Source: Gammaproteobacteria bacterium (GTDB lineage Bacteria > Pseudomonadota > Gammaproteobacteria > Steroidobacterales > SZUA-146). From it: a stretch of DNA of 64,000 nt. The DNA is taken from positions 47,245-111,244 of the forward strand of contig JBGCFV010000001.1 of the NCBI GenBank assembly GCA_045107075.1. Direction: 5' to 3'. Below, one piece after another: positions 2,605 to 32,419 of the stretch (position 1 is the first letter of the stretch; every line of letters starts with the position of its first letter). A program made the position numbers and the translations under genes. A model generated the notes under the pieces. The model was given only the letters and a program-made list of their open reading frames with translations. It had not been told where the DNA came from and ran no database searches.

Positions 2605-3570
2605 TTATCGAACCAGGTTCCCGGAGTCGCGTGAAGGTAGCGAGCACACTGGGCCAGGTACAGTCAGGAAAAACCGGCGAATGGTGTTCAGGTCCAAGAA
2701 ATTTACGACTCCATCACTATTAAAATCAGCGTCTGGGTTAGTAGTTAGGAAAAGCGGCACGAACGTACTGAGATCAATAAAGTTGGTAACACCGTCATTG
2801 TTTAAGTCAGTGTCGCACGCGTTGCCAAAGCCGTCGCCGTCAGAGTCTGTTTGAGACGGGTTACTCTCAAACGTGCAGTTGTCCGCGGCATCCAGTATGC
2901 CGTCGGCGTCTGAATCCTCACCCGCGACAAGACCGCAGGCAAAGCCGTATTGAATGTGGTCGATTTCCATGCCACCACCACTACCGCTGACGCTCACGGA
3001 TGCAATGCCTTCGTCATGGGAAATGCCCATGAAATTGTCATCAAGTGCGCTGCCGTTAGCAACGAAATTGGTTGAGCCATTGACTTCGTCGACTTGTAAG
3101 CCGTCGGCGTTAAAAGCCCGGAACGTGAAGTCGTTAAAATTGTTCACCAGGGCAAGACCGACGTGAGTCGGTAGGCGCCCACCCAGCTGCTGGTCATCGA
3201 AATTAAGCGCAATTGTCGGCGCACCCGAACTGATACCAAATGACGCATTGTTTTGCAGGTTTATACCGTCAATGACACCGTCGTCTTCGTCTACAGAGTC
3301 CTGAAACAAATTGTTCAGCATGAATACGTTGCCCGCTACTGGCGTAATCCCCGGAACATTGAACATCGCGTCCTCAAAGTCTTCGAGGTAGAAGTACGCA
3401 AACGTCAGTTGGGAAAACGGGCTTTGTTGTTCGTTAAGACAGCCGCTGATTTGAGTGCTATCAAAACAACGATAATTAGCAGGCCCAAATGTATCGGCTT
3501 GAGCGGGTAGGGCGCTAAGAGCCAGTAAGGCAAGCGGTGCGTAGAGCGTATGCGATTTATTTAATAACAT
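2605..3570 (-). CDS. Secreted protein with C-terminal TSP3-repeat/dockerin-like module
   Basis: Signal peptide ending AQA; C-terminal DSDADGILDAADNC…GDGFGNACDTDLNNDGVTNFID…DFNSDGVVNFLD…FFLTVPGP. Confidence 0.8.
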   Translation of the reverse strand: MLLNKSHTLYAPLALLALSALPAQADTFGPANYRCFDSTQISGCLNEQQSPFSQLTFAYFYLEDFEDAMFNVPGITPVAGNVFMLNNLFQDSVDEDDGVIDGINLQNNASFGISSGAPTIALNFDDQQLGGRLPTHVGLALVNNFNDFTFRAFNADGLQVDEVNGSTNFVANGSALDDNFMGISHDEGIASVSVSGSGGGMEIDHIQYGFACGLVAGEDSDADGILDAADNCTFESNPSQTDSDGDGFGNACDTDLNNDGVTNFIDLSTFVPLFLTTNPDADFNSDGVVNFLDLNTIRRFFLTVPGPVCSLPSRDSGNLVR

Positions 3571-3685
3571 GATGTTGGATATCCCTGTGAGCTGTTTTTT
3601 TTAAAGCTTACTGTACTAGGCGCAGCTTGCATAAAAAACAGTTCATGTTGTCCATATAAAAAGCGGCTCGAACGCAAAATCATGC

Positions 3686-3931
3686 CTAAAGGGTGCTACC
3701 AGCCTTGTTCCTTGGGGCTAAGTGGAGTGAGTAAGCCAAGGGCACTTCCAGGCTTGTCCCTTCGGGACAAGTAGAGTGCGTACCCCAAGGGCACTTCCAG
3801 GCTTGTCCCTCCGGGGCAAGTAGAGTGCGTACCCCAAGGGCACTTCCAGGCTTGTCCCTTCGGGGCAAGTAGAGTGCGTACCCCAAGGACACTTCCAGGC
3901 TTGGGCCCTCGGATCAAGTAGAGTGCATGGG
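3686..3931. repeat. Tandem array of 49-bp palindromic units (4 conserved + 1 degenerate)
   Basis: The unit CCAAGGGCACTTCCAGGCTTGTCCCTTCGGGACAAGTAGAGTGCGTACC starts at 3736, 3785, 3834 and 3883, with a degenerate copy near 3686. Each unit has nested stems GCACT/AGTGC and CTTGTCCC/GGGACAAG. Confidence 0.9.
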
Positions 3932-3949
3932 AGTGCACCAAAGGCATTT

Positions 3950-4060
3950 GCCTGTCCGGCCGTTGGCCGGACAGGCTGCACGGCTTATCTTGCCGCGATA
4001 GGCGTTTCAATATTCAACGCCGTCGCGTATTTCATCGCGGCTGGAAGCCGCTTCTTTACA
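3950..4060. repeat. Perfect 12-bp hairpin plus inverted REP-like pair
   Basis: GCCTGTCCGGCC-GTT-GGCCGGACAGGC at 3950-3976, then CGGCTTATCTTGCCGCGAT…ATCGCGGCTGGAAGCCGCTTCTTTAC; shares sequence with 44934-44972. Confidence 0.75.
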
Positions 4061-4111
4061 GTTTGGGATGGGTTCGATTGCAGTGCGTTTGGTGCGCTTT
4101 GCGGGCAGGCG

Positions 4112-5197
4112 TTAGTGAGTAGCGAGCTCGGCCAGTTCTTCGGCCTGGTGTTCCTGACGCAATGGATCAACGAGGTGATCAAGACCGCCGGCCAGGATTT
4201 CGTCGAGTTTGTAGAGGGTCAGGTTGATACGGTGGTCGGTCACGCGCCCCTGCGGATAGTTGTACGTGCGAATGCGTTCGGAACGGTCGCCGCTACCTAC
4301 TTGTAATTTGCGCTGCTGAGCCTGGGCCGACTGTTGCTTTTGTTGTTCGGCGTCTAACAAACGCGACTGCAACAAGCTCATGGCGCGGGCACGGTTCTTG
4401 TGCTGTGAACGTTCGTCCTGGCACTCAACCACGACGCCCGTTGGAAGGTGAGTCAGGCGTACGGCTGAATCGGTTTTGTTAACGTGCTGTCCACCGGCGC
4501 CTGATGCGCGGTAGGTGTCAACGCGAAGGTCAGCAGGGTTAATATCGATTTCGTTAATGGCTTCAACTTCAGGCAGCACAGCCACGGTGCAAGCCGACGT
4601 GTGAATGCGGCCCTGCGACTCGGTTTCGGGTACTCGTTGAACCCGGTGTGTGCCGGACTCAAACTTGAATCGTGAGAACACGCTTTGACCAACAAGGCGT
4701 GCAATGATTTCTTTAAAACCGCCGTGGTCGCCTTCAGACTGACTCACAATTTCAACGCTGAATTTTTGTTGATCGGCGTAGCGTGAGTACATGCGAAACA
4801 GGTCGCCGGCAAAAATAGCGGCTTCGTCGCCGCCCGTGCCAGCTCGAATTTCGATAAACGTATTGGCGTCGTCGTTAGGATCAACCGGTATCAGATGCTG
4901 CATGAGCGTGCCGCTCAGGTCGTCGATTTGTGTGGCAACCGTCTGCAGTTCTTCTTTGCCCATTGCGGCCATTTCGGCGTCGCTGTCTTTGCTCAGCTCC
5001 TCGGCTGAACGCTGGTCCTCGAGGAGAGCTTGATAGCGCATAACGTCCTGCGCAACCGGTTCGAGGCGAGAGTATTCCTTCGACAGATCGCGGAACTGAT
5101 CTTGATCGCCAATAACGTCCGGATCAGCCAGCAGCGCCTGAACTTCGTCAAAGCGTTCCTGCAGCTGAAAGAGCTTCATCTGAATGGAGGATTTCAT
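4112..5197 (-). CDS. prfA: Peptide chain release factor 1
   Basis: GGQ motif ([17 protein letters not shown]), RF1-specific PET/PxT (RVPETE), [11 protein letters not shown]; start placed at MKSSIQMKL. Confidence 0.97.
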
Positions 5198-5315
5198 GGA
5201 GCGTATAGTGCCAGATTGCGCGTTGTGTCGCTGTGCTTTTTCATGCTCCGGTGAAGCGTGAGGCAACATTTTGAGTTTAACTTGGCTTTTCTGATTGGGT
5301 CAGTGGTAAACGGAC

Positions 5316-5620
5316 GGAGATTGCCACGCCCGCGGTGCGGGCTCGCTATGACTGGGTTCTGAACAGAAGCAGTATTTCAAGCGTGACCCGATACTGTCAT
5401 TGCGAGCGCGAAGCGCGCGGCAATCTCCTGCTGCAACTATGGCGTTTTTTATTGAAGTGATAGCACCCGGAGGGGGATTGCCACGCCCGCTGTGCGGGCT
5501 CGCAATGATACGGCTCTGTATAGACGTCGTACGTATTCGCAATGACATGGCTCTGCATAAGCGTCGTACGTATTCGTAATGACAGGTTTCTGAATAGGCG
5601 TCGTACGTATTAGCAATGAC
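5316..5620. repeat. Palindromic repeat cluster (GTCATTGCGAG…GGCAATCTC family) plus three 37-bp tandem units
   Basis: GGAGATTGCCACGCCCGC..GCGGGCTCGC.ATGA at about 5316 and 5473; inverted copy TGTCATTGCGAGCGCGAAGCGCGCGGCAATCTCC at 5395-5428. AATGA recurs at 5504, 5541, 5578 and 5615 (period 37) with core CGTCGTACGTATT. Confidence 0.85.
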
Positions 5621-5645
5621 CGAAGTCTGGAAGCGCAGTCAGTGA

Positions 5646-6905
5646 CTAGAGCTTGCGGCCGCGTCTACCGAAAAAGCGGCGGGCGACCTCGAGTACCTGT
5701 TCGTCGGCTTCTTCGGCGGCCTTGCGCATTTCGATGCTTGGAACGTGGAGCAGGCGGTTGGCCAGTCGGTCAGCCATCCATTGCACGGTTTCCATCGGGG
5801 CCTTGCCGGCGTTCAGGTGTTTTTCGGCTTGCTCGAGAAGCTCGCGTTTAATTTCATTGCTTTGAGCATGCAGGTCGCTAATGAGGGGCGCTGCGTCCAG
5901 TCCGTCGGTGTCGCGTGCGTAGCGTTCGCCGTGCTCGGCGATAATGCTTTCGGCCATTTTCGCCGCTTCACGTCGTGCGTCCAGGTTCTCGTCGACGGCC
6001 TGATGCAGGTCGTCAATCGTGTACAGAAACACGTCGTCGAACTCGGAGCTTGCCGGGTCGATGTCGCGCGGTACAGCCAAATCGACGATGAACATGGGGC
6101 GCCTCTTACGCGCACTCAAAGCCTGCTTGAGTTCCTCGGCCTGCACGACGTAATCGGGGCTTGCCGTGCTCGAGAAAATCAGGTCGGCTTTGGGCAGTAG
6201 CTCAGGCAGTTTGTCCAGCGTGTACGAGCTGCAGTTGAGGGTCTTGGCCAGCTTGCGTCCGCGTCCCTCACTGCGGTTGGCAATGGAAAGGGTGCCAACG
6301 TTATGGGTTTTGAGGTGGGTGGCCGCAATTTCGATCATTTCGCCTGCGCCGATCATTAACGCGTGTTTATTCGAGAATTCTCCAAATACCTGCTGCGCGA
6401 GCCGAATGGAGGCGCTGGCCGCCGAAGTAGAGGCGACACCAATAGCTGTTTCTGTGCGGATTCGCTTGGCCACGGCGAAGGCGTGGGGCAGCAGTCTGTG
6501 CAGCTGAGCCGCTACGGTGCCGGAGTCCCGGGCCAAACGAAACGCTGTTTTCAGCTGTCCCAGGATCTGCGGTTCGCCCAAAATAAGCGAATCAAGGCCT
6601 ACGGCTACGCGGCAAAGGTGCTCTATGACGTCGTCATCACGTTTGACATATAAACATTTCATCACTTCGTCGGAACGATTGCTGTTCTGAAGCATCCAAG
6701 TTTTCAGGGAGTCTTCGGTGGCATCGGATCCGTAGCAGTAGATTTCAGTGCGATTACAGGTAGACAGGACCAGAGCTTCCTCCACGCCGTCGAGAGCGCA
6801 GATGTTTTTCAGTTTTGCAGAAAGCGTGGTGGCATCAAACGCGACCTGCTCACGCAGTTCGAGCGGCGCGGTGTGGTGGTTGATGCCAATGACGTGTAAA
6901 CCCAT
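5646..6905 (-). CDS. hemA: Glutamyl-tRNA reductase
   Basis: GINHHTAP, STCNRTEIY, LDSLILGEPQILGQ, IGAGEM and DLAVPRDI motifs; start at MGLHVIG. Confidence 0.97.
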   Translation of the reverse strand: MGLHVIGINHHTAPLELREQVAFDATTLSAKLKNICALDGVEEALVLSTCNRTEIYCYGSDATEDSLKTWMLQNSNRSDEVMKCLYVKRDDDVIEHLCRVAVGLDSLILGEPQILGQLKTAFRLARDSGTVAAQLHRLLPHAFAVAKRIRTETAIGVASTSAASASIRLAQQVFGEFSNKHALMIGAGEMIEIAATHLKTHNVGTLSIANRSEGRGRKLAKTLNCSSYTLDKLPELLPKADLIFSSTASPDYVVQAEELKQALSARKRRPMFIVDLAVPRDIDPASSEFDDVFLYTIDDLHQAVDENLDARREAAKMAESIIAEHGERYARDTDGLDAAPLISDLHAQSNEIKRELLEQAEKHLNAGKAPMETVQWMADRLANRLLHVPSIEMRKAAEEADEQVLEVARRFFGRRGRKL

Positions 6906-7088
6906 AGAGATGTAGAAGTGCGTAGTTGGCCTTGTGATTATCGGTCCAATTGTCCGGGATGGTCGAGGCAATAACAAGTACTGAAACGGAGTCGGAGCGA
7001 ACGGCGACGGCTTTTATCGGCAGCGGCCCCTTCGGGTGTTTGCTATAGTAAGTAGAAATAAACGGCCGAGCGGCCAGGCGAGAACGTT

Positions 7089-9452: not shown

Positions 9453-9479
9453 GAGACGCAACGGAGTCGACAATGTCCA

Positions 9480-9508
9480 TTGACAGGCATTGATTTGCAC
9501 CGCAAAAT
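9480..9508 (+). promoter_or_regulatory. Sigma70 promoter for tRNA-Gln-prs
   Basis: TTGACA, 17 bp, CAAAAT, followed by a GC-rich discriminator-like stretch. Confidence 0.7.
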
Positions 9509-9561
9509 ACCGCCCTCGCGGATGGCTGAGACTCAGTCATATCCGCCGATTTCAAGACAGT

Positions 9562-9636
9562 TGGGGTGTAGCCAAGCGGTAAGGCATCGGGTTTTGATCC
9601 CGTGTACCGTAGGTTCGAATCCTACCGCCCCAGCCA
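9562..9636 (+). tRNA. tRNA-Gln (TTG)
   Basis: TGGGGTG/CGCCCCA acceptor stem, D-loop GCCAAGCGGTAAGGC, anticodon loop TTTTGAT, GGTTCGAATCC T-arm, CCA end; 75 nt. Confidence 0.96.
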
Positions 9637-9660
9637 TTTTTTTAAAGTAGAGGACACGCG

Positions 9661-10620
9661 GTGGACATAGGTCGAGGGTCTATGGTGGTTTTCGCAGGTA
9701 ATGCGAACCCGCCGCTGGCGCAAAATATTGCGCGGTGTCTGATGCTGCCACTGGGTCGCGCCAACGTGAGCACGTTCAGTGACGGCGAAATTAACGTCGA
9801 GATTATGGAAAACGTCCGTGGTCGTGACGTCTTTTTGGTGCAAAGCACCTGTCCGCCGGCTAACGACAACCTCATGGAACTGCTCATTATGGCCGACGCC
9901 TGTCGTCGTGCCTCAGCTCACAGCATCACTGCTGTCATTCCTTACTTTGGCTACTCGCGTCAGGACCGACGTCCTCGCGCCAGTCGTGTGCCGATTACGT
10001 CGAAGCTCATTGCCGACATGGTAGTCACTGCAGGTATCGACCGGGTGCTGACACTCGATTTACACGCTGACCAAATTCAGGGGTTCTTTTCAATTCCGGT
10101 CGACAACGTCTACGCGTCACCGGTGTTGCTGGGCGACGCCTGGCGGCAGAAGTACGAGAACATTGTGGTGGTCTCGCCTGACGTCGGCGGTGTGGTTAGA
10201 GCTCGCGCTCTGGCCAAACGTCTTGACGACGCAGATCTTGCCATTATCGACAAACGTCGACCGCGTGCCAACGAATCCAAAGTGATGAACATTATTGGTG
10301 AAGTAAAAGGCAAGGTGTGCATTTTGATCGACGACCTGGTCGACACAGCCGGAACCTTGTGCCAGGCCGCCGCGGCGCTCAAAGAAGAGGGCGCTGAAAA
10401 AGTAGTGGCCTACATTACTCACCCGGTGTTGTCAGGGCCTGCTGTAGAACGCATTCAGAATTCCGCCATCGACGAACTCGTGGTGACGGACACCATTCCG
10501 TTGGACGAGGCCGCTGAAAAGTGTGACCGCATTCGACAACTTAGTACCGCCGAGCTGCTGGCTGAAACCATGCGCCGTATTGTCAACGACGAATCGGTAA
10601 GTTCGCTGTACTTAGACTAA
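9661..10620 (+). CDS. prs: Ribose-phosphate pyrophosphokinase
   Basis: [35 protein letters not shown] and [10 protein letters not shown] motifs. Confidence 0.98.
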
Positions 10621-10636
10621 AGACCACATTTTGTAG

Positions 10637-10664
10637 GCAGTGAACCTGGTCGCGGGTTTGCTGC
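10637..10664 (+). promoter_or_regulatory. Putative L25 (rplY) mRNA leader hairpin
   Basis: Stem GCAGTGAACC/GGTTTGCTGC with a TGGTCGCG loop just upstream of rplY, resembling proteobacterial rplY leaders. Confidence 0.55.
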
Positions 10665-10688
10665 ATTTTTGTAAACGAGGAGAAAGGC

Positions 10689-14955: not shown

Positions 14956-16668
14956 GTGGACAGGTTAACGGAACGAAAACTATCTGGGATGCATGCTTTT
15001 AGCGTATCGCTGCTTATCGCCATGTCATTCTATCTTTGCTCGAGCGCATACGCCGATTCCGGCCACAAAGCCAAGCTCGATTCGGTCGTTACGACCGGGA
15101 CATTGCAGGTATACGTTGTGGAGGGGCTTGACGGCACTGCGCCGCGTTACGAGTACTTTTTGGATACAGGCGACGAGGAAATTGAGCTGGTTAATTTCGC
15201 AGACAGCTCAGCGACAACTGGCGATCAGCTTCGTGTTGTCGGAAGCAATGTGGGTGATGCAATCAGTGTTACCCGGACAGAGTCTATTTCCCAAGCGGCT
15301 GGGCGCTCTTTGGGAACGCCTTTGACTGGAGCGAGGAAGGTGGCTGTGGTCATGGTTAATTTTCAAAACCACGCGCTGACTAATCAGCAGGTAACTAACT
15401 TGCGCAAGGCCATGTATGAATACATTGACTACCCGTATTCGTGGAATGGTGACTATCAAACATCTACCGAGGCATCGGTCAAAGCGAGTCTCGAACGCTA
15501 CTCGTTTGGTCAGCTTTCGATTAATTCAGACACCGATGCCGACGGCGAATACGATATTTTCGGGCCTTACGATACGAATGAGATTCGCGACGACTGCTCG
15601 TATAACACTTGGGACAATGCCGGATTCGCGGCGGCGACAGCCGACGGCGTTGATATGTCGGTATACGAACATCGCATATACGTTACGCCGTCTCACTTTT
15701 GTAATTTCAGGGGGCGAGGATTATTAAATTGCGGTGACAACTGCACGGCGTGGGCTTCGGCGCAAACTATCGACGGTAACGTCCACACAATTACTCATGA
15801 GCTCGGGCACAATTTCGGTCTTTACCACACCGGCGCTGATCTTGACGATAATCCGTCCACCTGGACAAACGATGAAGCGATCGCCGACAGATTTACGCTT
15901 ATGTCCGTTGGTTCTCACCCGGGTGGTGACGACGTGATCGCTCTGCAACGCGATACGTTGGGATGGTTCGACGCAGTTCCAGGAGCAAAGCAGACTATTT
16001 CGAGTACGGGCACGTATGTCATTAACGATTTGGGCGAGCTTGCATCTGACCCGATTACCTTGCGACTGGACGCCTTGGTTCCGCCTAGCTCTACTGCGAC
16101 ACGTGAGTTCTACATTTCGTACCGTCGTTCAACCATCGACCAGTACGGCACAAAGCCAGGTTTCTTTGACGCTAACCCAGAGATTGCCGATACCGTACGC
16201 GTGCACGAATGTCGGAACAACGCTTGCACCATATCCGAGCTGAGAGCGCAGCTTGGTGCTGGCGAGTCGTACCTTGAGGACCAGTCTCAGTGGAACGCAG
16301 TGCCATTGTTTATTCAGGCAAGTGACTTTGCTACCGGAGCACAAACGGCGAGCGTGGACGTTTACGTTGGCGACACTGACCAGGATGGCATCAACGACTA
16401 CGAAGACAACTGTTACCTAGTCCCCAATGCCAATCAGGCCGATGCGGACTGCGACGGATACGGGAACATGTGCGATGCCGATTTGAATAACGACAACGTG
16501 GTGAATGTAATCGACATGGGTATTCTGCTGTCTAATATGTCGAGCAGCGACCCAGTGTCTGACCTGAACAGTGACGGAATTGTCGACAGCGCCGATCAAG
16601 CAATTCTCTCATCCATGTTTTTCAAAGCTCCGGGTCCTTCAGGACCAACGGCCCAATGTTCGCCCTAA
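14956..16668 (+). CDS. Secreted metzincin zinc metalloprotease (M11-like) with C-terminal TSP3/dockerin-like module
   Basis: Signal peptide ending AYA; HELGHNFGLYH (HExxHxxGxxH) and Met-turn TLMS; C-terminal DTDQDGINDYEDNC…DLNNDNVVN…FFKAPGPSG. Confidence 0.85.
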   Translation: MDRLTERKLSGMHAFSVSLLIAMSFYLCSSAYADSGHKAKLDSVVTTGTLQVYVVEGLDGTAPRYEYFLDTGDEEIELVNFADSSATTGDQLRVVGSNVGDAISVTRTESISQAAGRSLGTPLTGARKVAVVMVNFQNHALTNQQVTNLRKAMYEYIDYPYSWNGDYQTSTEASVKASLERYSFGQLSINSDTDADGEYDIFGPYDTNEIRDDCSYNTWDNAGFAAATADGVDMSVYEHRIYVTPSHFCNFRGRGLLNCGDNCTAWASAQTIDGNVHTITHELGHNFGLYHTGADLDDNPSTWTNDEAIADRFTLMSVGSHPGGDDVIALQRDTLGWFDAVPGAKQTISSTGTYVINDLGELASDPITLRLDALVPPSSTATREFYISYRRSTIDQYGTKPGFFDANPEIADTVRVHECRNNACTISELRAQLGAGESYLEDQSQWNAVPLFIQASDFATGAQTASVDVYVGDTDQDGINDYEDNCYLVPNANQADADCDGYGNMCDADLNNDNVVNVIDMGILLSNMSSSDPVSDLNSDGIVDSADQAILSSMFFKAPGPSGPTAQCSP

Positions 16669-17809: not shown

Positions 17810-19144
17810 CTATTTATCTACATAAAACGGAACGTTATGCGCCGCAGCTCCACCTTGGCCGTCGAAAACGGTAACGAACAATCGATAAGCACCAGCACGT
17901 CGCGGTGCTCTAAAAGTGACCCGTGGAGTTCCCTGTCCGGACCGAATGGCCTCTGAAAATGAAGGCGGGGCCGCCTCGGCGTCGCCACCCGTTCGGCGGT
18001 CGGTGCTTTCGGCTCGAACGTCCCATACGTAGCGTAGTTCGTCATTCTCACGATCAGCGGCGTCCACTGTAGCGCGGGCTTTGGCGCCGGGCTTCACCGT
18101 TTTGTGTGCAAATTTGGAGTCCAGTGAGCGTATTCCAGGGGCGCGATTGGCGGGCCATTTTCCCGTCCAGGCGAAAGACATGGCGTCAACGGCTGGTTGC
18201 TTTTCGCCGGTTTCTAAAAACATACCGAACCACGTTGCAGTAGCCTCTTGTTTGTTTCCCCAGTAAAAAGCATAGGAGCCCAGCGAGCGTCCAACGTTGT
18301 TGTCACGATCCAAAACGTAGATGGAATAAAACGACTCGGCTTTGCTCGCCGGATCAGGCTCTATGGGTGCGCCCCAGGCCGTGTTGGCGACTTCCCAATG
18401 TCCGTTCGTGCCGAACTCGGTGAGCATGTACGGACCGTCCCAACCCATTTCAGTCAGCGTCTGACCGGTTCCGGCAGCACCTCCGTACGCGTTAACGCCG
18501 AGAATATCGATGCGAGGATAGTACTGCTTGATGCTATCAATGGTTTGCTGCCGGGTGCCAGCTACAACTGTCATCACCGGGTGGTGTGGGTCCAGGTCTT
18601 TGATGATGCCAGCCAGATGATTGAGTTCCTGCCAGACGAGCGGGTTGTTCTGCCGCTCACCGAAGGCTTCCATTTCGTTACCGAGCCCCCACATGAGTAG
18701 CGCCGGGTGGTCTTTGTATTTTTGCACTGCTTCACGCAGCCGGGCTCGCTGTTGTTCGATGCTTGCCTCGTCTTCGTAATTAAAACCATGACGCTCGTGT
18801 TGAACCCAAAAACCAACCGTTACCGAGATGCCCAGTTCGTGAGCGGCATCAAGAAGCGGCTTACCCTCGAACGTTTGTTCGAGATGCTCAATGCCCCAGG
18901 TGCGTATCGAGTTACCGCCGGATGCCTTCAGTAGACGTAAATATTTGAAGCCGCCGACCCCCTTTACTGAGTAGGGCTGGTTGTTTCGCATGAGTGTGAA
19001 CGCGCCAGACTCGTCTTTGATGACCTCTACCTGACCATTTTCTGATAATACGGACGCGTCGTTTTCCGTCGCCTGAGCGTTACTCACAAGTAGAGCTATA
19101 GCGAAAAGAAAGCAGACCGGTACAGGCAGCGCTATTCGAAGCAT
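17810..19144 (-). CDS. Secreted clan GH-A glycoside hydrolase (GH2-TIM-barrel-like) with C-terminal Ig-like domain
   Basis: Signal peptide; GGNSIRTWG, acid/base WGLGNE, nucleophile MLTEFG. Confidence 0.82.
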   Translation of the reverse strand: MLRIALPVPVCFLFAIALLVSNAQATENDASVLSENGQVEVIKDESGAFTLMRNNQPYSVKGVGGFKYLRLLKASGGNSIRTWGIEHLEQTFEGKPLLDAAHELGISVTVGFWVQHERHGFNYEDEASIEQQRARLREAVQKYKDHPALLMWGLGNEMEAFGERQNNPLVWQELNHLAGIIKDLDPHHPVMTVVAGTRQQTIDSIKQYYPRIDILGVNAYGGAAGTGQTLTEMGWDGPYMLTEFGTNGHWEVANTAWGAPIEPDPASKAESFYSIYVLDRDNNVGRSLGSYAFYWGNKQEATATWFGMFLETGEKQPAVDAMSFAWTGKWPANRAPGIRSLDSKFAHKTVKPGAKARATVDAADRENDELRYVWDVRAESTDRRTGGDAEAAPPSFSEAIRSGQGTPRVTFRAPRRAGAYRLFVTVFDGQGGAAAHNVPFYVDK

Positions 19145-21780: not shown

Positions 21781-21781
21781 A

Positions 21782-23008: not shown

Positions 23009-23014
23009 GGAGTT

Positions 23015-24321: not shown

Positions 24322-25308
24322 ATGACAGATTTGCCGTCCTATGTAGAAAACAAAAACGACTACGCAAAATTCAGTCCGCTGTTAGTCTCGAATTCCAAAG
24401 GCCACCCTCGTATGCGCGTCGGGGTAACGCTCGAGCTGTGGTTGCTGGATGGTTGGACTGACGAAAAACGTAACGCCAGCCTGACTGTGTTGCAAGAGTA
24501 CTGTGAGCTTTTCGAAGGCCAGGTCGACAGCTACATGATCAATGACGATACGCAGCCAAGAATAATGCACAACCGCTTCATCGATGACTTCAAGAACGCC
24601 CTGCAGGACTGCAATACCAAAAAGAACTTTAGTTTTGTGGTTAACAACTCTAAGGAGCGAGTGCCTCTGCATCAGGTGAGCACCGTCTTGGTTGCGAGTG
24701 GTCGCCGGAAACGAAAACCCTTGAGTCGTTTTCGTGTTCAATTTGACCCGGCATGGGTTGCGAAAGACCCCGAGGCTTTTGTGTCGTTGGCTACGTCGTG
24801 GTGCAGTACCCTGAGACCCGTTCATGGGACCGTCGGTCTGGCCCCGATTATTTGGGGCGGCATGGACGTTGATTTTCCGGAGCTCTACGTGCCATTTTTG
24901 AAACGGTTCCCAGGCTTGGACTTTAATAACGCCGCTTTTGGATTGTTGGCAAAAACAAGTCGACACATTAAAGCGGTGAACTGGTTAACCGTCATTGATA
25001 ATCAATGGGTGATTGAGTTAGGCGGATCAGACTGGCTTGCCAAGTCGTTTTCCGATCAGGTAACGCTTCATGACTTTGGTGCCGGTTTTCTGATTCAGGC
25101 CGGCGCCGAGCCACAGGTTGGCGATATGAATAGTCACATTTGGCCTCAGGAATACATTGAGGTGAACAGAATGTTAAAGCCGATTCGTTTTGAGGGCTAC
25201 GAACAACGTGGTTTGTTTGCGGTTGAAAGCCCAATGGAAGAACTGGACGAGACCATGAGCTGGATTCGACGTTTCGACCGTGAAGATGACAATGCGCCGT
25301 TCTTTTAG
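24322..25308 (+). CDS. Type VI secretion immunity family protein (DUF3396/TsiV-like)
   Basis: RFPGLD, IKAVNWLT, GFLIQAGAEPQVGD, Y.EVNRMLKPIR and WIRRFD motifs. Confidence 0.82.
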   Translation: MTDLPSYVENKNDYAKFSPLLVSNSKGHPRMRVGVTLELWLLDGWTDEKRNASLTVLQEYCELFEGQVDSYMINDDTQPRIMHNRFIDDFKNALQDCNTKKNFSFVVNNSKERVPLHQVSTVLVASGRRKRKPLSRFRVQFDPAWVAKDPEAFVSLATSWCSTLRPVHGTVGLAPIIWGGMDVDFPELYVPFLKRFPGLDFNNAAFGLLAKTSRHIKAVNWLTVIDNQWVIELGGSDWLAKSFSDQVTLHDFGAGFLIQAGAEPQVGDMNSHIWPQEYIEVNRMLKPIRFEGYEQRGLFAVESPMEELDETMSWIRRFDREDDNAPFF

Positions 25309-25843
25309 ACGACAATCAAGCGGTGAGGCGTTACTGAACGAGAGCCTGGCTGCGGCTTAGTTCGCGTCTAAGATCTCGACAGGTTTGGCCGAAAAGGTAG
25401 CGGCTCTGACGTAGGTCAAACTTTACTGCAGCGAGCGTCCGCTCCTGCGAAATCTGACTGTCCCGATTAATTTCATTTCTTACGATGCTTTTCAAAGAGC
25501 TTTGTCGCTGTATTGGATGAAGCACAATTAGATCCATCGTACTGACAGTCAATTCTCACTTAAAACAACACGAATTTCAGAGAATTAGCTTCCGGTTGAA
25601 GCCAAACGGTCAGTTTTGGGAGGTTTCCAGACTCAATCTACGCATGTGGTTTCGTCGCCAACCCAACGGCAGCCGCACTGCGTAGATGTGAGTCAGTAAA
25701 TGACTCAATTCACTGTCGGGTACGACACATACTAAACAGTCTTCAGTCATGGCGCTTGCGACAAGCCGTACGCTGTGATTCATGACGACTAATGTGTGCT
25801 AACCGAAATTGAATTCAGTCCAGGGAAACACGAGGACCAAAAA

Positions 25844-28800
25844 ATGAAACAGTCAACATTGTCACACTATTATCTAGCGGCACTCATTTTCACATCAAGC
25901 TGCTATCTGACGACGACAAGCGCGGATACGGTTGTGGGCGAAGATGGGCAAGCCTATTACGTACAAGATACTAAACCGAAAGAAGGGCTCGAAAAGATCG
26001 CGCCGAGTTTGCGGTTAGCCTCTTCCGATAAGGAAATCGATGTCATTATCTATTTGGCACGGCCAACACAGCAGGCCGGTAAATCAAGTCCAATTGCGCA
26101 AGTGAAGGCCGATCATCTCGCCATTCTTGAGCGTCTGGATGAAGAGATACGCAGTATTAAGAGAGACGACCGGCCTACCAGGTCACTGACAGAAGCTGAG
26201 GAGCAAGAGTACGTACGCTCAATAGCAGGCACCCCAATGTCAGCGGCAAAACAAAGTCGACTCGATTCACTCAAACGCGAAATAGATGAGGCGAGAACGG
26301 CCATGCACAAAGCAGTCAGTGCCGCCATCGACGCAGCCGGACGTAACGAGCGGGCCGCCATGCGCAGCGACATTCAGAGCGCAGGTGGCCAGATCACGTC
26401 CGAAATTTCGTTAGTCAATGCGTTGGGTGCCACCATAAGGGCTGACATGCTTCAGTCTCTGGCGTTTGACAACCGTGTCGTCGAGGTACTTCCCAATCTG
26501 CCTGCCGACTACGAGTTGGAAGTCAGCCGACAAGCAGTTGGATTTCCGACTTACCACAATAACGGTTTCGATGGGAGCGGCATCTTTGATATCGGTATCA
26601 TCGATTCAGGTGTGCAGGAAAACCATCCCAACCTGTCTCCGGCGGAGGGCTTTTTTACTAATTCGTCGTCACCTACCGATCCCGATATGGAAGTGGGTCA
26701 CGGAACTCACGTAACCGGCATTGTGGCCAGTAATCACGGATCGGTCAGGGGTGGTGTTCCAAATGTTGGTGCCATTATTTGGGAGAGATCCGGTAGCCAG
26801 GGTACGACCATGAGTCGAATGCACAACCTGGCGTCAGACTTTACACAGTCTCCAGAGGCGGTTAACCACAGCCTTGGTTACGGTACGGCAAACGACGTTG
26901 ACTACAACGCCAACGACAGCTTTTACGACGCTTACGTCGAAAATTTTGGCATCATGGTGACCAAGTCAACCGGAAACGGGGGCTGGACGACATCTGATCC
27001 CGGTGACCCCTCGATCACAATTACCCATCCGGCATCGGCTTATAACTTGCTGGCCGTGGCCAACATGAATGACCGCAACACCGTGACCCGGGACGACGAC
27101 ATTCGCAGTTCCGGATCAAGCGTTGGTCCAACGGTTGGGGGTCGACGAAAGCCCGATATAGCCGCACCCGGTACAGGCATTAATTCAACCAACTTTTTTT
27201 GGCCGGGAGCCGGATCGCTTCCATACAACGCGTGTAACGGACCGGCTCGCTTTGGCGCCGACAACATCGATGACTTCTGCATACTGTCAGGCACCAGTAT
27301 GGCTGCGCCTCACGTTGCGGCCGGTATTCTCCTGATGGAAGATGCGGGCAACACCATTCCACGCTCCCAAAAAGCGGTTATGTTGAATACCGCTGATGCC
27401 TGGGATAGCAATGAAACATCTACGTCGTCCGATGACGGTGAGCAGCAAGCGCCGACGTGTTCTGCCAGCGACTGTGACACCCTGTGGGACAAGGCCTACG
27501 GCTGGGGGTACATGGATATGACCGAGGCGCATTTCAACAACAACGACTACTTCAACGACAGCGTTGTCGGTCGAAACGATGACGCCATTGAAAACGACTA
27601 CAAGCTCTACAAAGGTTTCATGTTTGCTAACGAAAAGGCCACACTTACCTGGCAGAAACGTGCCGACAATTATATTGACGGCGGCCCGGCAACCGGACAG
27701 CGTGCGATTGGAGATCTGAACATTCGGCTTTACTCCAATTCTAACGGTGACCTGATGGACCTTGATTTGACTGCTACTGATAACGTTCAGCAAGTGGTTG
27801 CCCCAACCGGTGCGACGGCGGTAGTTAAAGTCTATGCGTGGAGCTCAGCCTTCGATGGTATTACAGCCATGCCGTATTCTTTGGCGACCGAGGAAAACTT
27901 TCAGCGGGTTGATCCGCCGAGCTTTGCTGCGACGCCACTCATTCCGGTTGTGGGACCGTTTCAAACCTTTACAGCGGCGACGCTCATCGCCAATAACGGT
28001 ACAACGGGTGCGCATTCCACCAACGTAGCCATCGGCAACGTGGGTGGCGTAATCGGTGACGGCACGAGCCAGAACGTTGGTACGATTTTGGACGGGGATT
28101 CAGAGCAGGTTTCTTTTACTCTGACTACCAGTGGCCTTAGCGCAGGCACACAGTTTATCCCGGTTACGGTAACGAGCAATAGCTACAATGAAACCTATAC
28201 GGGTAACTTCCCGAACGGCATCCGCTTTACCGTTGAGACAACGGCTCCAACCAGCGACTGCACTACTAGTGGTACGTATACCAATGACGACGAGATTGCC
28301 GTTGACTGGACAGGCTCTGACGGGTTTGGTACCGGCGTAGACTTTGCGCGTCTTTATGTAAGAGCACCTGGCAGCGCAGTCTATCAGAACACCGGATTGC
28401 AGCAGAACGGTACATCGGGCACGTTTAACTTCCCGGCCGCAAGCGGCGATGGTACGTATTTCTTTGCCATTAGAGCGCGCGACAACGGAGGTAACTGGGA
28501 ATCCATACCAACCAGTAACGAATGCTTCGTCGTCCGCGATTCAGTCGATCCCGTTTCCACACTCAGTGCACCAAACTTCGTGCCCGCTGGTGCTATTCCA
28601 TTAACGTTTTCGGTCTCCGATGCGTCGCCATCTAGTGGTCTTGAATTTGTAGATTTTTGGTACTACGAAGCGCCTAACGGACCTTGGACGTATACCGGAC
28701 AGTTTTCAACAAACGCAAATGGCTTAATTAACTGGGTGCCACCTGGGCCCGGCGTTTATTACTTTTCTTCAAGAGCTAAAGACAATGCGCAAAACGTTGA

Positions 28801-29146
28801 GTCCGATGTGTTTGCACCACCACCCGTAGAGACCGTTACCAACTACGGCGGCATTGACTCCGACGGTGACGGTGTTCTTGATTTAGCGGATAACTGCACG
28901 TTGCTATCCAATCCAGGTCAGCGAGACACGAATGGCGACGGTTACGGAAACATGTGTGATCCCGACTTAAATAACGACGGCGTCGTTAACTTCGTCGACA
29001 TTCAGGCCTGGACTTCGTTCTTTAACGTCGCCTGCGGTAACGTGGACGAAGACATCAACGGAGACGGGTTGTGTAACTTCATCGACTATCAGGCCTTTGG
29101 GAATTTCTTCCTCCAGCCTCCCGGTCCCAGTGGAGTCGCTCCCTGA
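25844..29146 (+). CDS. Secreted S8 subtilase with Ig-like repeats and C-terminal TSP3/dockerin-like module
   Basis: Catalytic triad IIDSG, HGTHVTG, GTSMAAPHV; KPDIAAPG; C-terminal DSDGDGVLDLADNC…FFLQPPGPSG; start at MKQSTL. Confidence 0.92.
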   Translation: MKQSTLSHYYLAALIFTSSCYLTTTSADTVVGEDGQAYYVQDTKPKEGLEKIAPSLRLASSDKEIDVIIYLARPTQQAGKSSPIAQVKADHLAILERLDEEIRSIKRDDRPTRSLTEAEEQEYVRSIAGTPMSAAKQSRLDSLKREIDEARTAMHKAVSAAIDAAGRNERAAMRSDIQSAGGQITSEISLVNALGATIRADMLQSLAFDNRVVEVLPNLPADYELEVSRQAVGFPTYHNNGFDGSGIFDIGIIDSGVQENHPNLSPAEGFFTNSSSPTDPDMEVGHGTHVTGIVASNHGSVRGGVPNVGAIIWERSGSQGTTMSRMHNLASDFTQSPEAVNHSLGYGTANDVDYNANDSFYDAYVENFGIMVTKSTGNGGWTTSDPGDPSITITHPASAYNLLAVANMNDRNTVTRDDDIRSSGSSVGPTVGGRRKPDIAAPGTGINSTNFFWPGAGSLPYNACNGPARFGADNIDDFCILSGTSMAAPHVAAGILLMEDAGNTIPRSQKAVMLNTADAWDSNETSTSSDDGEQQAPTCSASDCDTLWDKAYGWGYMDMTEAHFNNNDYFNDSVVGRNDDAIENDYKLYKGFMFANEKATLTWQKRADNYIDGGPATGQRAIGDLNIRLYSNSNGDLMDLDLTATDNVQQVVAPTGATAVVKVYAWSSAFDGITAMPYSLATEENFQRVDPPSFAATPLIPVVGPFQTFTAATLIANNGTTGAHSTNVAIGNVGGVIGDGTSQNVGTILDGDSEQVSFTLTTSGLSAGTQFIPVTVTSNSYNETYTGNFPNGIRFTVETTAPTSDCTTSGTYTNDDEIAVDWTGSDGFGTGVDFARLYVRAPGSAVYQNTGLQQNGTSGTFNFPAASGDGTYFFAIRARDNGGNWESIPTSNECFVVRDSVDPVSTLSAPNFVPAGAIPLTFSVSDASPSSGLEFVDFWYYEAPNGPWTYTGQFSTNANGLINWVPPGPGVYYFSSRAKDNAQNVESDVFAPPPVETVTNYGGIDSDGDGVLDLADNCTLLSNPGQRDTNGDGYGNMCDPDLNNDGVVNFVDIQAWTSFFNVACGNVDEDINGDGLCNFIDYQAFGNFFLQPPGPSGVAP

Positions 29147-29169
29147 GCTACTGGTGTTTTGCAATAAAG

Positions 29170-29199
29170 AAAAAGCCCCTTGAAAAAGGGGCTTTTTTT
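29170..29199. terminator. Bidirectional rho-independent terminator
   Basis: AAAAAGCCCCTT-GAAA-AAGGGGCTTTTTTT between convergent genes. Confidence 0.88.
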
Positions 29200-29293
29200 A
29201 TTTGGGACCTCGCAGCTAATGGCCTGAGTGTCGAGCAGCGGATCTTTATCTTCGCTGTTCGCGTTTACAAAAGGCTTGGCCGCGAGTTCACTA

Positions 29294-29800
29294 CTAGCCT
29301 GCAGGTCGGTAGTTAACCACTTTCGTGTTGGCAATCAGATCATGCACGCATCGTTTGTCGCTGCGAAAAATGAACAAGGCGTCTACCAGGCTGGCAATTT
29401 GACCAACAACAGGAACCTGGCCTACGACCCAGAGTGGTACGTACCTGAGGCCGATCAGTTTGGCCAGAGGCAGGAGGCGACCGTCGTCAAACGACACAAT
29501 TTGGGTGCGCACTAACAGCTTGCCAATTGTTTGTCCTTTCGTACTGAGCAAATAGCCGTTTAAGGCGAGAAAGATTGCCAGGCCGGCGATGCCCATCAGA
29601 GCTGTTTCAAGCAGAGTTTGTGAAGCGGTGCTGGCACGTTCAAAGTACCCAGTCATTAGCACCAGCGGAATCGTTATAACGCCAATAAGCAGCCCGTCAA
29701 TGAGTGAGCCAAAGAATCGTCGCCACCGGCTGGCAAGTTCGCCTGGTGCTGAGTCAGCTAGCTCGGCGCTAGGTGGGCTGTATGGATTTTCGGTGGACAT
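29294..29800 (-). CDS. RDD-family membrane protein
   Basis: NPYSPP, LASRWRRFFGSLID, GQTIGK and RCVHDLIANT motifs. Confidence 0.88.
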   Translation of the reverse strand: MSTENPYSPPSAELADSAPGELASRWRRFFGSLIDGLLIGVITIPLVLMTGYFERASTASQTLLETALMGIAGLAIFLALNGYLLSTKGQTIGKLLVRTQIVSFDDGRLLPLAKLIGLRYVPLWVVGQVPVVGQIASLVDALFIFRSDKRCVHDLIANTKVVNYRPAG

Positions 29801-30028
29801 GAGGCTTTCCTTCTAAATGTTGGTGTTGGTACTAAGAGTTAGGTCACGTCGTGAGTCTACCTGAAAGAGTCTGGTATGGGGCGGCGCGTAAATGGCCCGC
29901 TCAACAGAGAATAAGCAATGTGTCGTTAATGCTGAACACGGAGCGCGGGCTCATCAAAGCGCTGGACAGCAGATTAATGAGGCCGGCTCATTTTGTGGCC
30001 GTTCCCGAATAAGCTTGTAAGTCGGGTC

Positions 30029-32419
30029 TTACAAGCTGTTCAAGAAATCCAGCAGGGTGGACTGTTGTTCTGCTGACAATGCTTCGTAGGCAAGTCTTGA
30101 CGCATCCGCTTCACCGCCATGCCAACGAATGGCCTCATCAATGGTGCGGGCGCGGCCATCATGCAAAAAGCCAATGCGATTAACGTCGTCGGGGCTACCG
30201 GCCAACGAGACCAGGTCGTTTGCTTTGGCATCTCCGAGCATCACGCTACGCGAATGACCCAGACCCCAAAGTGGCGTCGTGCGCCACTCAGAGCCGGTGG
30301 CTGTGCCGTCGTCAAGATTATCGGCGAGTCCCGGACCCATGTCGTGCAACAACATATCGCTGTAAGGGTAAATAGTTTGGCTGCGCAATTCCGCCATGGG
30401 GGAAAAGCTGCTTGTTGTCATCGATTTTCTATGACAGCCGCCACAACCTGCATTGGCAAATAGCTCTTCGCCAGCGCTGTCGTCGTAGTTGCGCCGTGCA
30501 CCGACGCCAAGCAGGCTTAAGTAGGTAACCAGATCGTCAAGCTGATTATCGGCCAGCTCGGACCCGGACGTGCCACAGCTGGTTTGATTGCTACCGCAGT
30601 CCGGATTGGGAAGTACGCTTGTCATCACACCCATGTCGGTGTTGAACGCTTCTGCTGCCTGATGTTTGACGCTCATTGTTGAAGCCTTGTAACCAAAGCG
30701 ACCAAGTCGAACGTCGTTGGTTTCAGGGTCTGTGACAACAGACGGACGCCCGGAAATGCCGTCACCGTCTGAGTCGCCTGCGTCAGCCCATTCAAGAATT
30801 ACTGACTCTGGAACGGCTTCAAGCAAGCCAAGACCAACCAGCTGCGGAGCTATTCGCGCTGAGAAGCGTTCGGGCGCGCCGTTGCTGAATACGTAATTTG
30901 GAGAGCGCAGTCCATTTGGCAAATCGGTCCACTGACCCAGGCTTACCGTTCCTTCCGATGTGCCAGCGCCGATTTTGTTAGGCTGTAATACACGGCCTAT
31001 CTGCGCATCCGGGTCACCGTTTGCGTCACCCACTTTGAACACCCATTTGTCGAGGTCGGCACCGACATCCGCCACCAAAGCGCGTCCATTACGAACGTGG
31101 CACAGAGCGCAAGACAAGTTAACGTAGTGATTTCCGGCTTTGCCTAGCTGCTCTGTCCACACCGGGTTGTCTGCGCGTTCATCGTGAATGCCGTCGTTAA
31201 AGTTTGTGTGATGTACGCGACGTCCCCGAACAAAAGGCTGTGCATTGCCTGGACTCAGGTTGGTAGCCATTTGCATAAAACGACCAGCTGGCTCTTCGCT
31301 GTAGTTATAGCCAAGTGTGGTGTCGCCACCAGATAATCCTTCCGGGGGAATGGGCGTGCCGTCGTTAACGCCAAGCGGCCTATTAACTCCACGTTGCCAT
31401 TCAAAGGGTCTTAAGCCGGGCGTACCTATTGTGTAGACGTAAGAAGTGCCGTAGTAGTTCTTGCGTAAGCCAGCCGGTGGGGCAAGTAGGAATTGACTAA
31501 TTTCGAATTCCATATTTGTGCCGACGGTAAGCGGACCATTGAACGTAGCCACGTTTTTCCATTGTTCCGTAATGTCGATTCTGTAGGCGAACTGTTGCCC
31601 CTGACTGCTGGTTTGAACGAAATCATCGCTAAACGTTCCCTGGGCGACTTGAACCGCGGTCGGGTTGTAGTGAAACTGCCCTGTTGTGGTGAGACCGTGG
31701 TACCAGACGCGAAATTCTTTTGCCCCCAGACGACTCTCCGTAATATAAGTCGCCCGTATCAGGCTTACGCCGTTAAGCGTGTGGTCTTCAAGCAGAATTC
31801 TTGCCGTGCGGTATTCCCAGTAGTGGGCGAGCCAGTGATCGTAGTGATCTGAATTTTGAATGTTGTTTGGGTCGTATATGCCGATGTCTTTGGCATGGCG
31901 ATCACGCCCACGGTCACCAAAGCGAGTGACGACCACACCGTCCTCTCTGATAAACGAGGAAATGGGCGCGAGCTGTGATGTGTCGTCAAAGAGCGGTTTG
32001 AAGGGGATGGCAGCAGGTCCTGGCGGCTGCAAAAAAAAGTCCGGAATCATGGCATAGTCCAGAAAATTGGCAGCTCCGTCGCCGTTAAAGTCGGCGTCGC
32101 CATTGGTTGTGGTGTTGAAGCTGGCTGCCCATATCGACACGTCAACGAAGTTTATGATGCCGTTGTTATCCAAATCGGGATCGCACGCGTTTCCAAATCC
32201 GTCCTGATTTGTGTCGCGCTGATTCGCGTTTGATACCAGCGTGCAGTTATCAGTCAAATCGCCAATCCCGTCACCATCTGTATCGAGCGCTCCTGCGCCT
32301 GTCATAAGAATAGAGGTGACAAACGTCGCTCCGTAGGACGGCATCATGATGGAGGCCGTCAACGCCGTAATAACAGCGACACCAAGTGAGCAGCGCAGGG
32401 TGCGATTAGATAGCCTCAT
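30029..32419 (-). CDS. Secreted di-heme oxidoreductase (DHOR-family) with N-terminal TSP3/dockerin-like module
   Basis: Two heme motifs, CALCH and CGGCH; GLGLLEAVP, GRFGYKA, SDMLLHDMG, WRTTPLWGLG, LHDGRART. Confidence 0.88.
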   Translation of the reverse strand: MRLSNRTLRCSLGVAVITALTASIMMPSYGATFVTSILMTGAGALDTDGDGIGDLTDNCTLVSNANQRDTNQDGFGNACDPDLDNNGIINFVDVSIWAASFNTTTNGDADFNGDGAANFLDYAMIPDFFLQPPGPAAIPFKPLFDDTSQLAPISSFIREDGVVVTRFGDRGRDRHAKDIGIYDPNNIQNSDHYDHWLAHYWEYRTARILLEDHTLNGVSLIRATYITESRLGAKEFRVWYHGLTTTGQFHYNPTAVQVAQGTFSDDFVQTSSQGQQFAYRIDITEQWKNVATFNGPLTVGTNMEFEISQFLLAPPAGLRKNYYGTSYVYTIGTPGLRPFEWQRGVNRPLGVNDGTPIPPEGLSGGDTTLGYNYSEEPAGRFMQMATNLSPGNAQPFVRGRRVHHTNFNDGIHDERADNPVWTEQLGKAGNHYVNLSCALCHVRNGRALVADVGADLDKWVFKVGDANGDPDAQIGRVLQPNKIGAGTSEGTVSLGQWTDLPNGLRSPNYVFSNGAPERFSARIAPQLVGLGLLEAVPESVILEWADAGDSDGDGISGRPSVVTDPETNDVRLGRFGYKASTMSVKHQAAEAFNTDMGVMTSVLPNPDCGSNQTSCGTSGSELADNQLDDLVTYLSLLGVGARRNYDDSAGEELFANAGCGGCHRKSMTTSSFSPMAELRSQTIYPYSDMLLHDMGPGLADNLDDGTATGSEWRTTPLWGLGHSRSVMLGDAKANDLVSLAGSPDDVNRIGFLHDGRARTIDEAIRWHGGEADASRLAYEALSAEQQSTLLDFLNSL

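Follow-up and report, generated by a model that had tools for sequence, protein, structure and literature searches.

Our analysis points to a cohesin-dockerin system of the non-cellulosomal kind by which uncultured Gammaproteobacteria would display exoproteins, a reading in which we infer the binding between the two partners and to which we assign a probability of roughly 0.55. It concerns a module of about 95 amino acids, four copies of which are encoded in the stretch of 64,000 nucleotides that was analysed here (in the following the window, C1:47245-111244 of genome G000, which comprises 4.94 Mb on 92 contigs and is 97% complete). The module is predicted to fuse a thrombospondin type 3 (TSP3) repeat to a dockerin, and genomes that are rich in it encode a family of small proteins with a predicted cohesin fold and the C-terminal tail of an exosortase substrate. 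If true, this full candidate cohesin-dockerin system, linked to an exosortase, would explain how a large and protease-rich exoproteome stays near the cell. Protein engineering would gain new orthogonal pairs of cohesin and dockerin, and the exosortase field a tractable substrate class.

The TSP3-dockerin module and its cargo

The four copies of the module in the window (Table 1) are encoded two on the minus and two on the plus strand and share 44-55% pairwise identity, with 32 invariant columns in their alignment. A hidden Markov model (HMM) was built from them and run on the six-frame open reading frames (ORFs) of at least 50 amino acids of G000. Each copy was recovered with an E-value between 3e-47 and 5e-45, which excludes a chance resemblance of the four. 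A preliminary description of the window had listed four copies with a common consensus, two calcium loops and an F..PGP end. The copies are indeed present, now with refined coordinates and with copies 1 and 4 on the minus strand, and the alignment confirms consensus, loops and end. All four host proteins begin with signal-peptide-like N-termini, as judged by eye from the translations, and Pfam finds no family common to the four outside the module, in agreement with their description as secreted and otherwise unrelated proteins.

By structure prediction the module is a single TSP3 repeat fused to a dockerin in one domain, since the AlphaFold2 (AF2) model and the matches found with profile and Foldseek searches agree on this architecture. 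Copy 3 (79-sequence alignment) was modelled as one compact domain (pLDDT 96.2, pTM 0.83) with helices at residues 50-57 and 79-88, directly behind the two calcium loops. When the module profile was compared with PDB sequences, positions 5-59 matched COMP and thrombospondin (COMP and TSP-2 with E 1e-47 to 1e-54, the COMP match of E 2.6e-54 extending over 7 repeats), and positions 41-94 matched more than 20 dockerin chains (E 2e-8 to 4e-4), which ranked above calmodulins. A further match was obtained to the OmpA-family TSP3 chain 5wtl_A (E 6e-10). The best Foldseek match of the model, a comparison that had been proposed along with the idea of one portable TSP3-dockerin unit, is the dockerin 2y3n_B of B. 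cellulosolvens (TM-score 0.80 on the target, root-mean-square deviation 0.9 over 53 columns, E 1.1e-3), followed at lower ranks by other dockerins and thrombospondin repeats. Both the comparison and the two profile halves thus speak for such a unit.

The duplicated DxNxDGxxNxxD loop with a following helix, by which dockerins are recognised, is conserved at both loops in the 117 copies that were found genome-wide (see below), with the AF2 helices behind the loops, and the similarity to solved dockerins is evident from the matches above. Likewise, the module has the Asp-rich calcium motif, the Cys pair and the score of a thrombospondin type 3 repeat (PF02412). The Cys pair of the TSP3 half and the G of PGP are present in 117/117 copies, the acidic calcium ligands are nearly invariant, and N-F occupies calcium-loop positions 9-10 in 112/117, and in 111/108 of 117, for the two dockerin loops. 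A Cys in the first dockerin loop occurs in 45/117 copies, and each of these 45 has a further Cys in the short stretch behind PGP, where 53/117 copies have one in all. This pairing points to an optional clamp disulfide that would tie the tail to the first dockerin loop.

Existing domain models capture the module in part. Pfam TSP_3 (cut-off 25) scores 43.2, 25.8 and 28.8 bits in three of the window hosts and 19.3 in the fourth, and the gathering cut-off of Dockerin_1 (22.9) is passed by one of the four copies, at 24.0 bits, in host 1, for which these two domains (TSP_3 with 43.2 bits) are the only Pfam matches. The NCBIfam matches on the window hosts (MtsC, Omp28_seleno, dockerin_GC) are all far under their cut-offs. 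None of the Pfam or NCBIfam models spans the module in full, TSP_3 reaching over only its first ~40 residues. With respect to these libraries and the literature searched, the module can be called undescribed.

The expectation of a large genome-wide family, for which an HMM count had been suggested, was borne out with 117 full-length copies in 117 ORFs of G000 and with 45-116 matches in related genomes. A second profile search of G000 gave 116 matches at E<=1e-20 and 122 at E<=0.001. Roughly one in 40 genes would thus carry the tag (117 ORFs in a 4.9-Mb genome, with the gene total estimated). Signal peptides were called on 95/117 hosts by a crude regular expression on ATG starts, which leaves some assignments doubtful. 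A heuristic choice of start codons places 91 copies at the C-terminus of their hosts, 17 at the N-terminus after a signal peptide and 9 inside the protein, and in 86 of the 111 copies in which a script located the PGP it is followed by 0-14 residues. Since C-terminal, N-terminal and internal placements all occur, the module suits the picture of a docking domain better than that of a terminal signal.

In a Pfam scan of all 117 module ORFs (E<=1e-5), under which Dockerin_1 shows in 27/117 hosts and TSP_3 in 67/117, peptidase catalytic domains were found in 17 hosts, namely S8 in seven, M23 and M14 in two each, and M4, M10, M11, M12B, M19 and trypsin in one each. Other cargo includes penicillin amidase, GH16, BNR/sortilin propellers, arylsulfotransferase, animal-type haem peroxidase, glucose/sorbosone dehydrogenase (GSDH, two), DHOR (two), a protein with LTD and endonuclease/exonuclease/phosphatase domains, Spondin_N (two), ThuA, DUF7948 (three), PKD/Ig arrays and VWA. 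About two dozen hosts have no Pfam family or show the tag alone.

For comparison we used a panel of 41 genomes of the same order, in which module matches were counted at E<=0.001. Besides G000 with its 122 matches, the genomes G001-G004 of its own genus (family f1) have 45-79 matches, G015 and G033 (f12) 116 and 68, G022 (f19) 116, and G012 and G031 (f9) 22 and 36. G027 (f24) has 45 matches, of which only 5 reach E<=1e-15, and the remaining panel genomes, from various families, have 0-8, mostly weak ones. The panel includes the unpublished genome G019, which contributes negative rows and one RpoB identity value only. Outside the panel (G041, G043, G044, G045, G046, G048, G049 and G050), whole modules were found in the gammaproteobacterial metagenome-assembled genomes (MAGs) G041 (6), G043 (4), G044 (5) and G045 (10), and 2-5 each in MAGs of Myxococcota, Oceanospirillaceae, Ignavibacteriales and Zixibacteria. 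Two further entries, G042 and G047, have contig coordinates identical to the assemblies of G033 and G002, respectively, and each of these assemblies was counted once.

Among public protein representatives the module profile matches 87,897 (E<=1e-3), 36,234 (1e-10) or 7,225 (1e-30) entries. These totals are no count of the whole module, because most of the 150 representatives listed are TSP3 arrays, long proteins with 13-46 stretches that match only positions ~5-50. An array of this kind is also encoded in G000, where a 1057-aa ORF on contig C64 has 12 tandem TSP3-like repeats matching the first half of the module only. Its C-terminus (a Gly run, a hydrophobic helix and RRK) resembles what we take to be a GlyGly-CTERM signal.

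A candidate cohesin-fold family and its link to the module

The preliminary description had seen no cohesin in the window, and none was found there. Elsewhere in G000 a sub-threshold match to Pfam Cohesin (15.9 bits, C41:47638-47775) led to seven paralogues of ~200 aa on contigs C16 (two), C40, C41, C45 and C91 (two). Each consists of a signal peptide, a domain of ~150 aa and a tail of the form VPxPAAxWLxLSG...R/K, and all seven have this single domain. The tails of 7/7 combine VPxPA, a transmembrane helix and basic residues, as in VPLPA-CTERM proteins, and the exosortase XrtD is encoded in the genome. Of two candidates compared with NCBIfam, C91:9709-10323 passes TIGR03370 (25.9 against a cut-off of 25.35), and the C41 copy has no match at E<=1e-5. 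AF2 predicts an all-beta fold for the candidate domain (23-sequence alignment, pLDDT 90.3, pTM 0.85), and all matches listed by Foldseek for this beta-sandwich are cohesins (best E 2.4e-8). Pfam recognises nothing in five of six candidates tested, 59 of 60 relatives in public records are without a precomputed Pfam domain, and the names given there are 'VPLPA-CTERM sorting domain-containing protein' or 'hypothetical'. A cohesin-like domain also occurs in G031 in a protein with six RTX nonapeptide repeat stretches and no VPLPA-CTERM tail, which hints at a type I secreted variant.

The candidate-cohesin profile matches 10/41 panel genomes. These are exactly the genomes with 22-122 module matches, apart from the low-scoring G027, and none of the 31 others has a match. 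The candidates number 7 in G000, 3 each in G001, G002 and G033, 4 each in G003 and G015, 1 each in G004 and G012, 8 in G022 and 2 in G031, and they are also present in the off-panel genomes G041, G043 and G044. As controls, Pfam Cohesin was found in 6/41 genomes without such a pattern, an exosortase in 24/41 and XrtD in 12/41. XrtD is present in G018 and G035, both of which lack strong modules as well as a candidate cohesin, and in G027, where no candidate cohesin was detected. RpoB identity to G000, a crude measure, served as a control for kinship. It amounts to 90-96% in the own genus, 86% in G015, 84% in G033 and 83% in G022, and to 84%, 83% and 83% in the module-poor genomes G006, G014 and G009. 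Furthermore, family f9 shares a split RpoB match pattern with the module-poor families f4 and f20. Because some module-poor genomes are about as close by this measure, these values suggest that the four module-rich families do not form a clade of their own.

The two gene families are also neighbours. In nine distinct genomes one or two candidate cohesin genes lie ~0-130 bp behind a gene whose product ends in the module, namely in G000 (two loci), G002, G004, G015, G022 and G033 and, off the panel, in G041, G043 and G044 (two loci). The sequencing data sets listed for the C41 pair of G000 were three of DNA, all from one study, and none of RNA. In G043 (L252) and G044 (L251) two candidate cohesin genes stand in tandem behind the module gene, the first without and the second with a CTERM anchor. 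In G022 two neighbouring ORFs encode fusions of an N-terminal module, a candidate cohesin domain and HYDIN/VesB-like Ig domains, again without the anchor.

A further link leads to the exosortase. XrtD (TIGR04152, 583.9 bits, cut-off 400) is encoded ~4.6 kb from the two candidate cohesin genes on C91, which an S8-dockerin gene adjoins. It is part of an exopolysaccharide (EPS) cluster upstream of this pair that comprises a tyrosine kinase fragment, a PEP-CTERM-system ATPase, a flippase, a Wzy-like polymerase and a heparinase II/III-like protein, as well as a WecG-family glycosyltransferase, a WecA-like GT4 and a PrsT-like TPR protein. The ~4.6 kb spacing is seen again in G001, in G033 and, where the cohesin match is weak, in G015, so that four genomes including G000 show it. 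XrtD and a second exosortase on C33 have many other substrates, since 39 ORFs of G000 have tails of the PEP-CTERM/VPxPA type according to a C-terminal regular expression, most of them ~200 aa long and of unknown family.

Apart from this family, Pfam Cohesin has one passing match in G000, at 29.2 bits in an ORF on C24, where the match is cut by the contig end. As a general partner of the module this cohesin was rejected: it was not found by its query in any of four same-genus genomes, and Pfam Cohesin shows no pattern across the panel. Its homologue in G031 combines a signal peptide and a cohesin with a module at the C-terminus, and is thus built like an adaptor scaffoldin. Because this homologue ends in a module, the C24 cohesin is probably one more cargo itself.

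For the window, module positions are those of HMM matches, and host positions are those of the encoding ORFs. The neighbours of the four module genes are housekeeping genes (prfA, hemA, lolB, prs, L25, pth, ychF), among which they are scattered, and they therefore do not form an island. Three other window ORFs may be mentioned. The one beside the DHOR gene has a PEP-CTERM-like tail (PVPEP, a hydrophobic helix and RRRK), is without a Pfam family at E<=1e-6 and stands outside the candidate cohesin family. Just upstream of the S8-dockerin gene an ORF matches Pfam TsiV with 109 bits (type VI immunity, VRR-NUC effectors). A third ORF, which lies between module-bearing genes and is without the module, has a weak match to the Glyco_hydro_2_C TIM barrel (28.7 bits).

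Table 1. Positions of the module copies, their host genes and other features discussed in the text. Positions without a contig or locus name are those of the window.
Feature	Position	Strand	Description
Module copy 1	2638..2925	-	HMM envelope at residues 226-320 of stop-to-stop ORF, E 8.7e-46; 11-residue tail after it
Module copy 2	16363..16653	+	E 4.5e-45
Module copy 3	28844..29137	+	E 3.7e-46; ends 2 residues before stop codon; copy modelled with AF2
Module copy 4	31994..32296	-	E 3.2e-47; protein residues 42-142; N-terminal placement
Host 1	2605..3570	-	321 aa, secreted, unknown family; module C-terminal
Host 2	14956..16668	+	570 aa, HExxHxxGxxH zinc metalloprotease, weak Peptidase_M11 and reprolysin-like matches; module C-terminal
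Host 3	25796..29146	+	1116 aa, S8 subtilase (Peptidase_S8 102.3 bits); module C-terminal
Host 4	30029..32419	-	796 aa, DHOR di-haem oxidoreductase (212 bits); module directly after signal peptide
Window ORF, Glyco_hydro_2_C-like	17810-19144	-	444 aa
Window ORF, TsiV	24322-25308	+	328 aa
Window ORF, PEP-CTERM-like tail	32854-33624	+	256 aa
G000 C41 locus, subtilase	C41:47888-51772		S8+PA subtilase
G000 C41 locus, candidate cohesin	C41:47272-47970		follows the subtilase gene
G000 C91 locus, subtilase	C91:3713-8203		S8+PA subtilase
G000 C91 locus, candidate cohesins	C91:8724-9227 and 9709-10323		follow the subtilase gene
G000 Pfam Cohesin match	C24:156-449		
G000 ORF with this match	C24:3-542	-	
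G000 second exosortase	C33:108381-109130		
G000 TSP3-like array	C64:100062-103232	+	1057 aa
G022 module-cohesin fusion	L243:1018-2751	+	first of two neighbouring ORFs
G031 cohesin-plus-module protein	L115:343-2124	-	593 aa, homologue of C24 cohesin
G031 RTX-fused protein	L237:979-2193	-	cohesin-like domain

Proposed mechanism and alternative explanations

In the proposed system the tag is a TSP3 Ca-binding repeat with a disulfide bond, rigidly joined to a dockerin of two F-hands and closed by an F-x-x-PGP turn. The ~117 tagged proteins would be exported by Sec and their tags would fold oxidatively and load Ca2+, two steps that follow from the sequence features described. The tagged proteins would then pass the outer membrane to the surface, where the Ca2+-loaded tag may dock on the seven small single-cohesin proteins. 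XrtD would process these cohesins and anchor them to the cell envelope or to the exopolysaccharide matrix, so that exoenzymes might be kept at the cell surface or matrix rather than be lost by diffusion, presumably to the ecological benefit of the cell. The anchoring of substrates by exosortases is itself deduced from the analogy to sortases and archaeosortases. More tentatively, and at somewhat less than even odds, the XrtD-fixed single cohesins could act as universal sockets of a Gram-negative 'exoproteome socket' for more than 100 TSP3-dockerin-tagged enzymes. If so, exosortase/PEP-CTERM sorting and cohesin-dockerin sorting, which have so far been studied separately, would be joined, and a first cargo logic would be proposed for the VPLPA-CTERM/XrtD system.

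Several observations weigh against a cohesin-dockerin display system. The partner family is a cohesin by predicted fold and not demonstrably by sequence: the Pfam Cohesin cut-off (24.1) is passed by none of six candidates, the best score being 15.6 bits for one member, the candidate profile finds nothing significant among PDB sequences (best cohesin E 0.27), and an hhalign comparison of the candidates with the Pfam-positive C24 cohesin gave a null result. The ten positive panel genomes come from no more than four GTDB families and therefore stand for few independent events. As to the route across the outer membrane, a profile search for GspD (TIGR02517) gave five matches, none above the cut-off. 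The proposal to look for partner genes by phylogenetic profiling yielded a co-distributed and syntenic cohesin-fold candidate, and for the type II secretion system, another of the partners suggested, the GspD matches all fall below the cut-off. Moreover, G000 has 117 tags for 7 candidate cohesins, and none was detected in the seven module-poor genomes G045 (10 modules), G027 (5), G006 (2), the Myxococcota genome G046 (5), G048 (2), G049 (2) and G050 (4). These last two points are in favour of an explanation that dispenses with a protein partner, in which the module would be a Ca-dependent appendage that binds to the matrix (exopolysaccharide, LPS or mineral surfaces) or simply stabilises the protein by stiffening its end, and the cohesin-fold proteins would be unrelated XrtD substrates. 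TSP3 repeats and F-hands are above all structural elements that bind Ca, to which the match to chain 5wtl_A would also fit. However, such an appendage leaves unexplained why candidate cohesins occur only in the ten module-rich genomes of the panel and why the XrtD-bearing G018 and G035 lack both, and the same holds for the adjacency in nine genomes and for the module-cohesin fusions. The dockerin half, too, keeps the duplicated helix-loop layout with which all the solved homologues listed bind proteins, and we therefore regard the appendage as unlikely.

The gene neighbourhood admits a narrower interpretation as well. Within the order, the genes upstream of the candidate cohesins are orthologues (50-79% identity) of only two G000 proteins, the S8+PA subtilases of the C41 and C91 loci, and the cohesins could therefore serve those enzymes alone, a further point against the system proposed here. 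The module would in this case be a dockerin with another general partner (an undetected scaffold, a canonical cohesin or itself), and the VPLPA-CTERM cohesins would be anchors or chaperone/inhibitor-like partners of the two neighbouring subtilases only. The Pfam-positive C24 cohesin and its module-bearing homologue in G031 are consistent with this. Against it, the C24 type was not found with its query in the four same-genus genomes and Pfam Cohesin is not co-distributed with the module, G000 has seven cohesin paralogues for two subtilase loci, and in G041, G043 and G044 the adjacency follows the tag and not a recognisable subtilase: outside the module BLAST shows no similarity to G000 hosts for the upstream proteins, whose ORFs run into the ends of the loci. 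We consider this arrangement improbable. Hardly any weight is given to the view that an export machine recognises the module as a signal for secretion or sorting, like the C-terminal domain of the type IX secretion system (T9SS) or PEP-CTERM, although the prevalence of C-terminal copies with short tails after PGP and the large number of cargo proteins, as for T9SS C-terminal domains, would agree with it. The preliminary description had raised a sorting signal running parallel to PEP-CTERM. This proposal was not supported, since in the four window copies no hydrophobic transmembrane helix or basic tail follows PGP, N-terminal and internal copies exist, and it is the candidate cohesins that carry a signal of this type, VPLPA-CTERM. 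The fold, moreover, is that of TSP3 and dockerin and not the beta-sandwich of a T9SS C-terminal domain, and no dedicated machinery gene turned up, with no systematic search for one made.

Comparison with known systems

The cohesin-dockerin system proposed here shares features with several known ones. With the T9SS C-terminal domain of Bacteroidota the module has in common that a folded C-terminal domain of ~90 aa is found on tens to hundreds of secreted proteins per genome. However, fold and phylum differ, and the position of the module is not obligatorily C-terminal (26/117 copies lie elsewhere). With thrombospondin/COMP and the TSP3 of bacterial OmpA (PDB 1ux6, 3fby, 5wtl) its N-terminal 40 residues share the pattern DxDxDGxxDxxDNC...NxxQxDxDxDGxGDxCD and the Cys pair, but in contrast to the arrays of thrombospondin/COMP the module has a single repeat unit that is always followed by the dockerin. 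The VPLPA-CTERM/XrtD system (TIGR03370, TIGR04152) is shared by the candidate cohesins, through their tails and the nearby XrtD, and not by the module. To our knowledge the roles of XrtD substrates are uncharacterised.

Cohesins and dockerins outside cellulosomes are known from the Archaeoglobus fulgidus cohesin 2xdh and from NagH/NagJ of C. perfringens (2ozn), and Peer et al. reportedly surveyed them in 2009. Papers on ANME and on Omnitrophota belong to the same group. As far as we know, the partners and the purpose of these scattered modules are mostly not known. Two dockerin-like and six cohesin-like ORFs are mentioned for the S. degradans genome, with binding untested there, and its module abbreviations include TSP3 and a COG3488 thiol-oxidoreductase-like domain (PMC2386152). 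Proteins rich in dockerin and TSP3 repeats are reported from giant genes of Omnitrophota (10.1101/2023.11.21.568195). In the literature searched we found no fixed TSP3-dockerin-PGP unit, no report of such a unit multiplied beyond 100 copies among Gammaproteobacteria and no Pfam-undetected cohesin family carrying an exosortase signal. Searches for dockerin with 'thrombospondin type 3' and Gammaproteobacteria, and for cohesin with dockerin and PEP-CTERM, found nothing.

The assembly of cohesins and dockerins is the textbook organisation of cellulases in Gram-positive anaerobes. In contrast to the cellulosomal type I/II systems of Clostridia (PDB 1ohz, 2y3n, 2b59), the host is here Gram-negative, and the cargo consists mostly of peptidases, oxidoreductases and unknowns, with few glycosidase-like domains (GH16, BNR) compared to 17 peptidase hosts. 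A multi-cohesin scaffoldin or a carbohydrate-binding module, as expected of a cellulosome, was not found, and 7/7 cohesin proteins of G000 are single-domain. The candidate cohesins escape Pfam and carry VPLPA-CTERM in place of SLH or sortase anchors. The dockerin, unlike its cellulosomal counterpart, comes with an attached TSP3 repeat and with a PGP tail, and it has F-(I/L/V) at loop positions 10-11, where S-T is found in C. thermocellum. The nearest analogy to the TSP3-dockerin unit is the X-dockerin unit, as in the type II X-dockerin modules (PDB 2b59, 4u3s, 5m0y).

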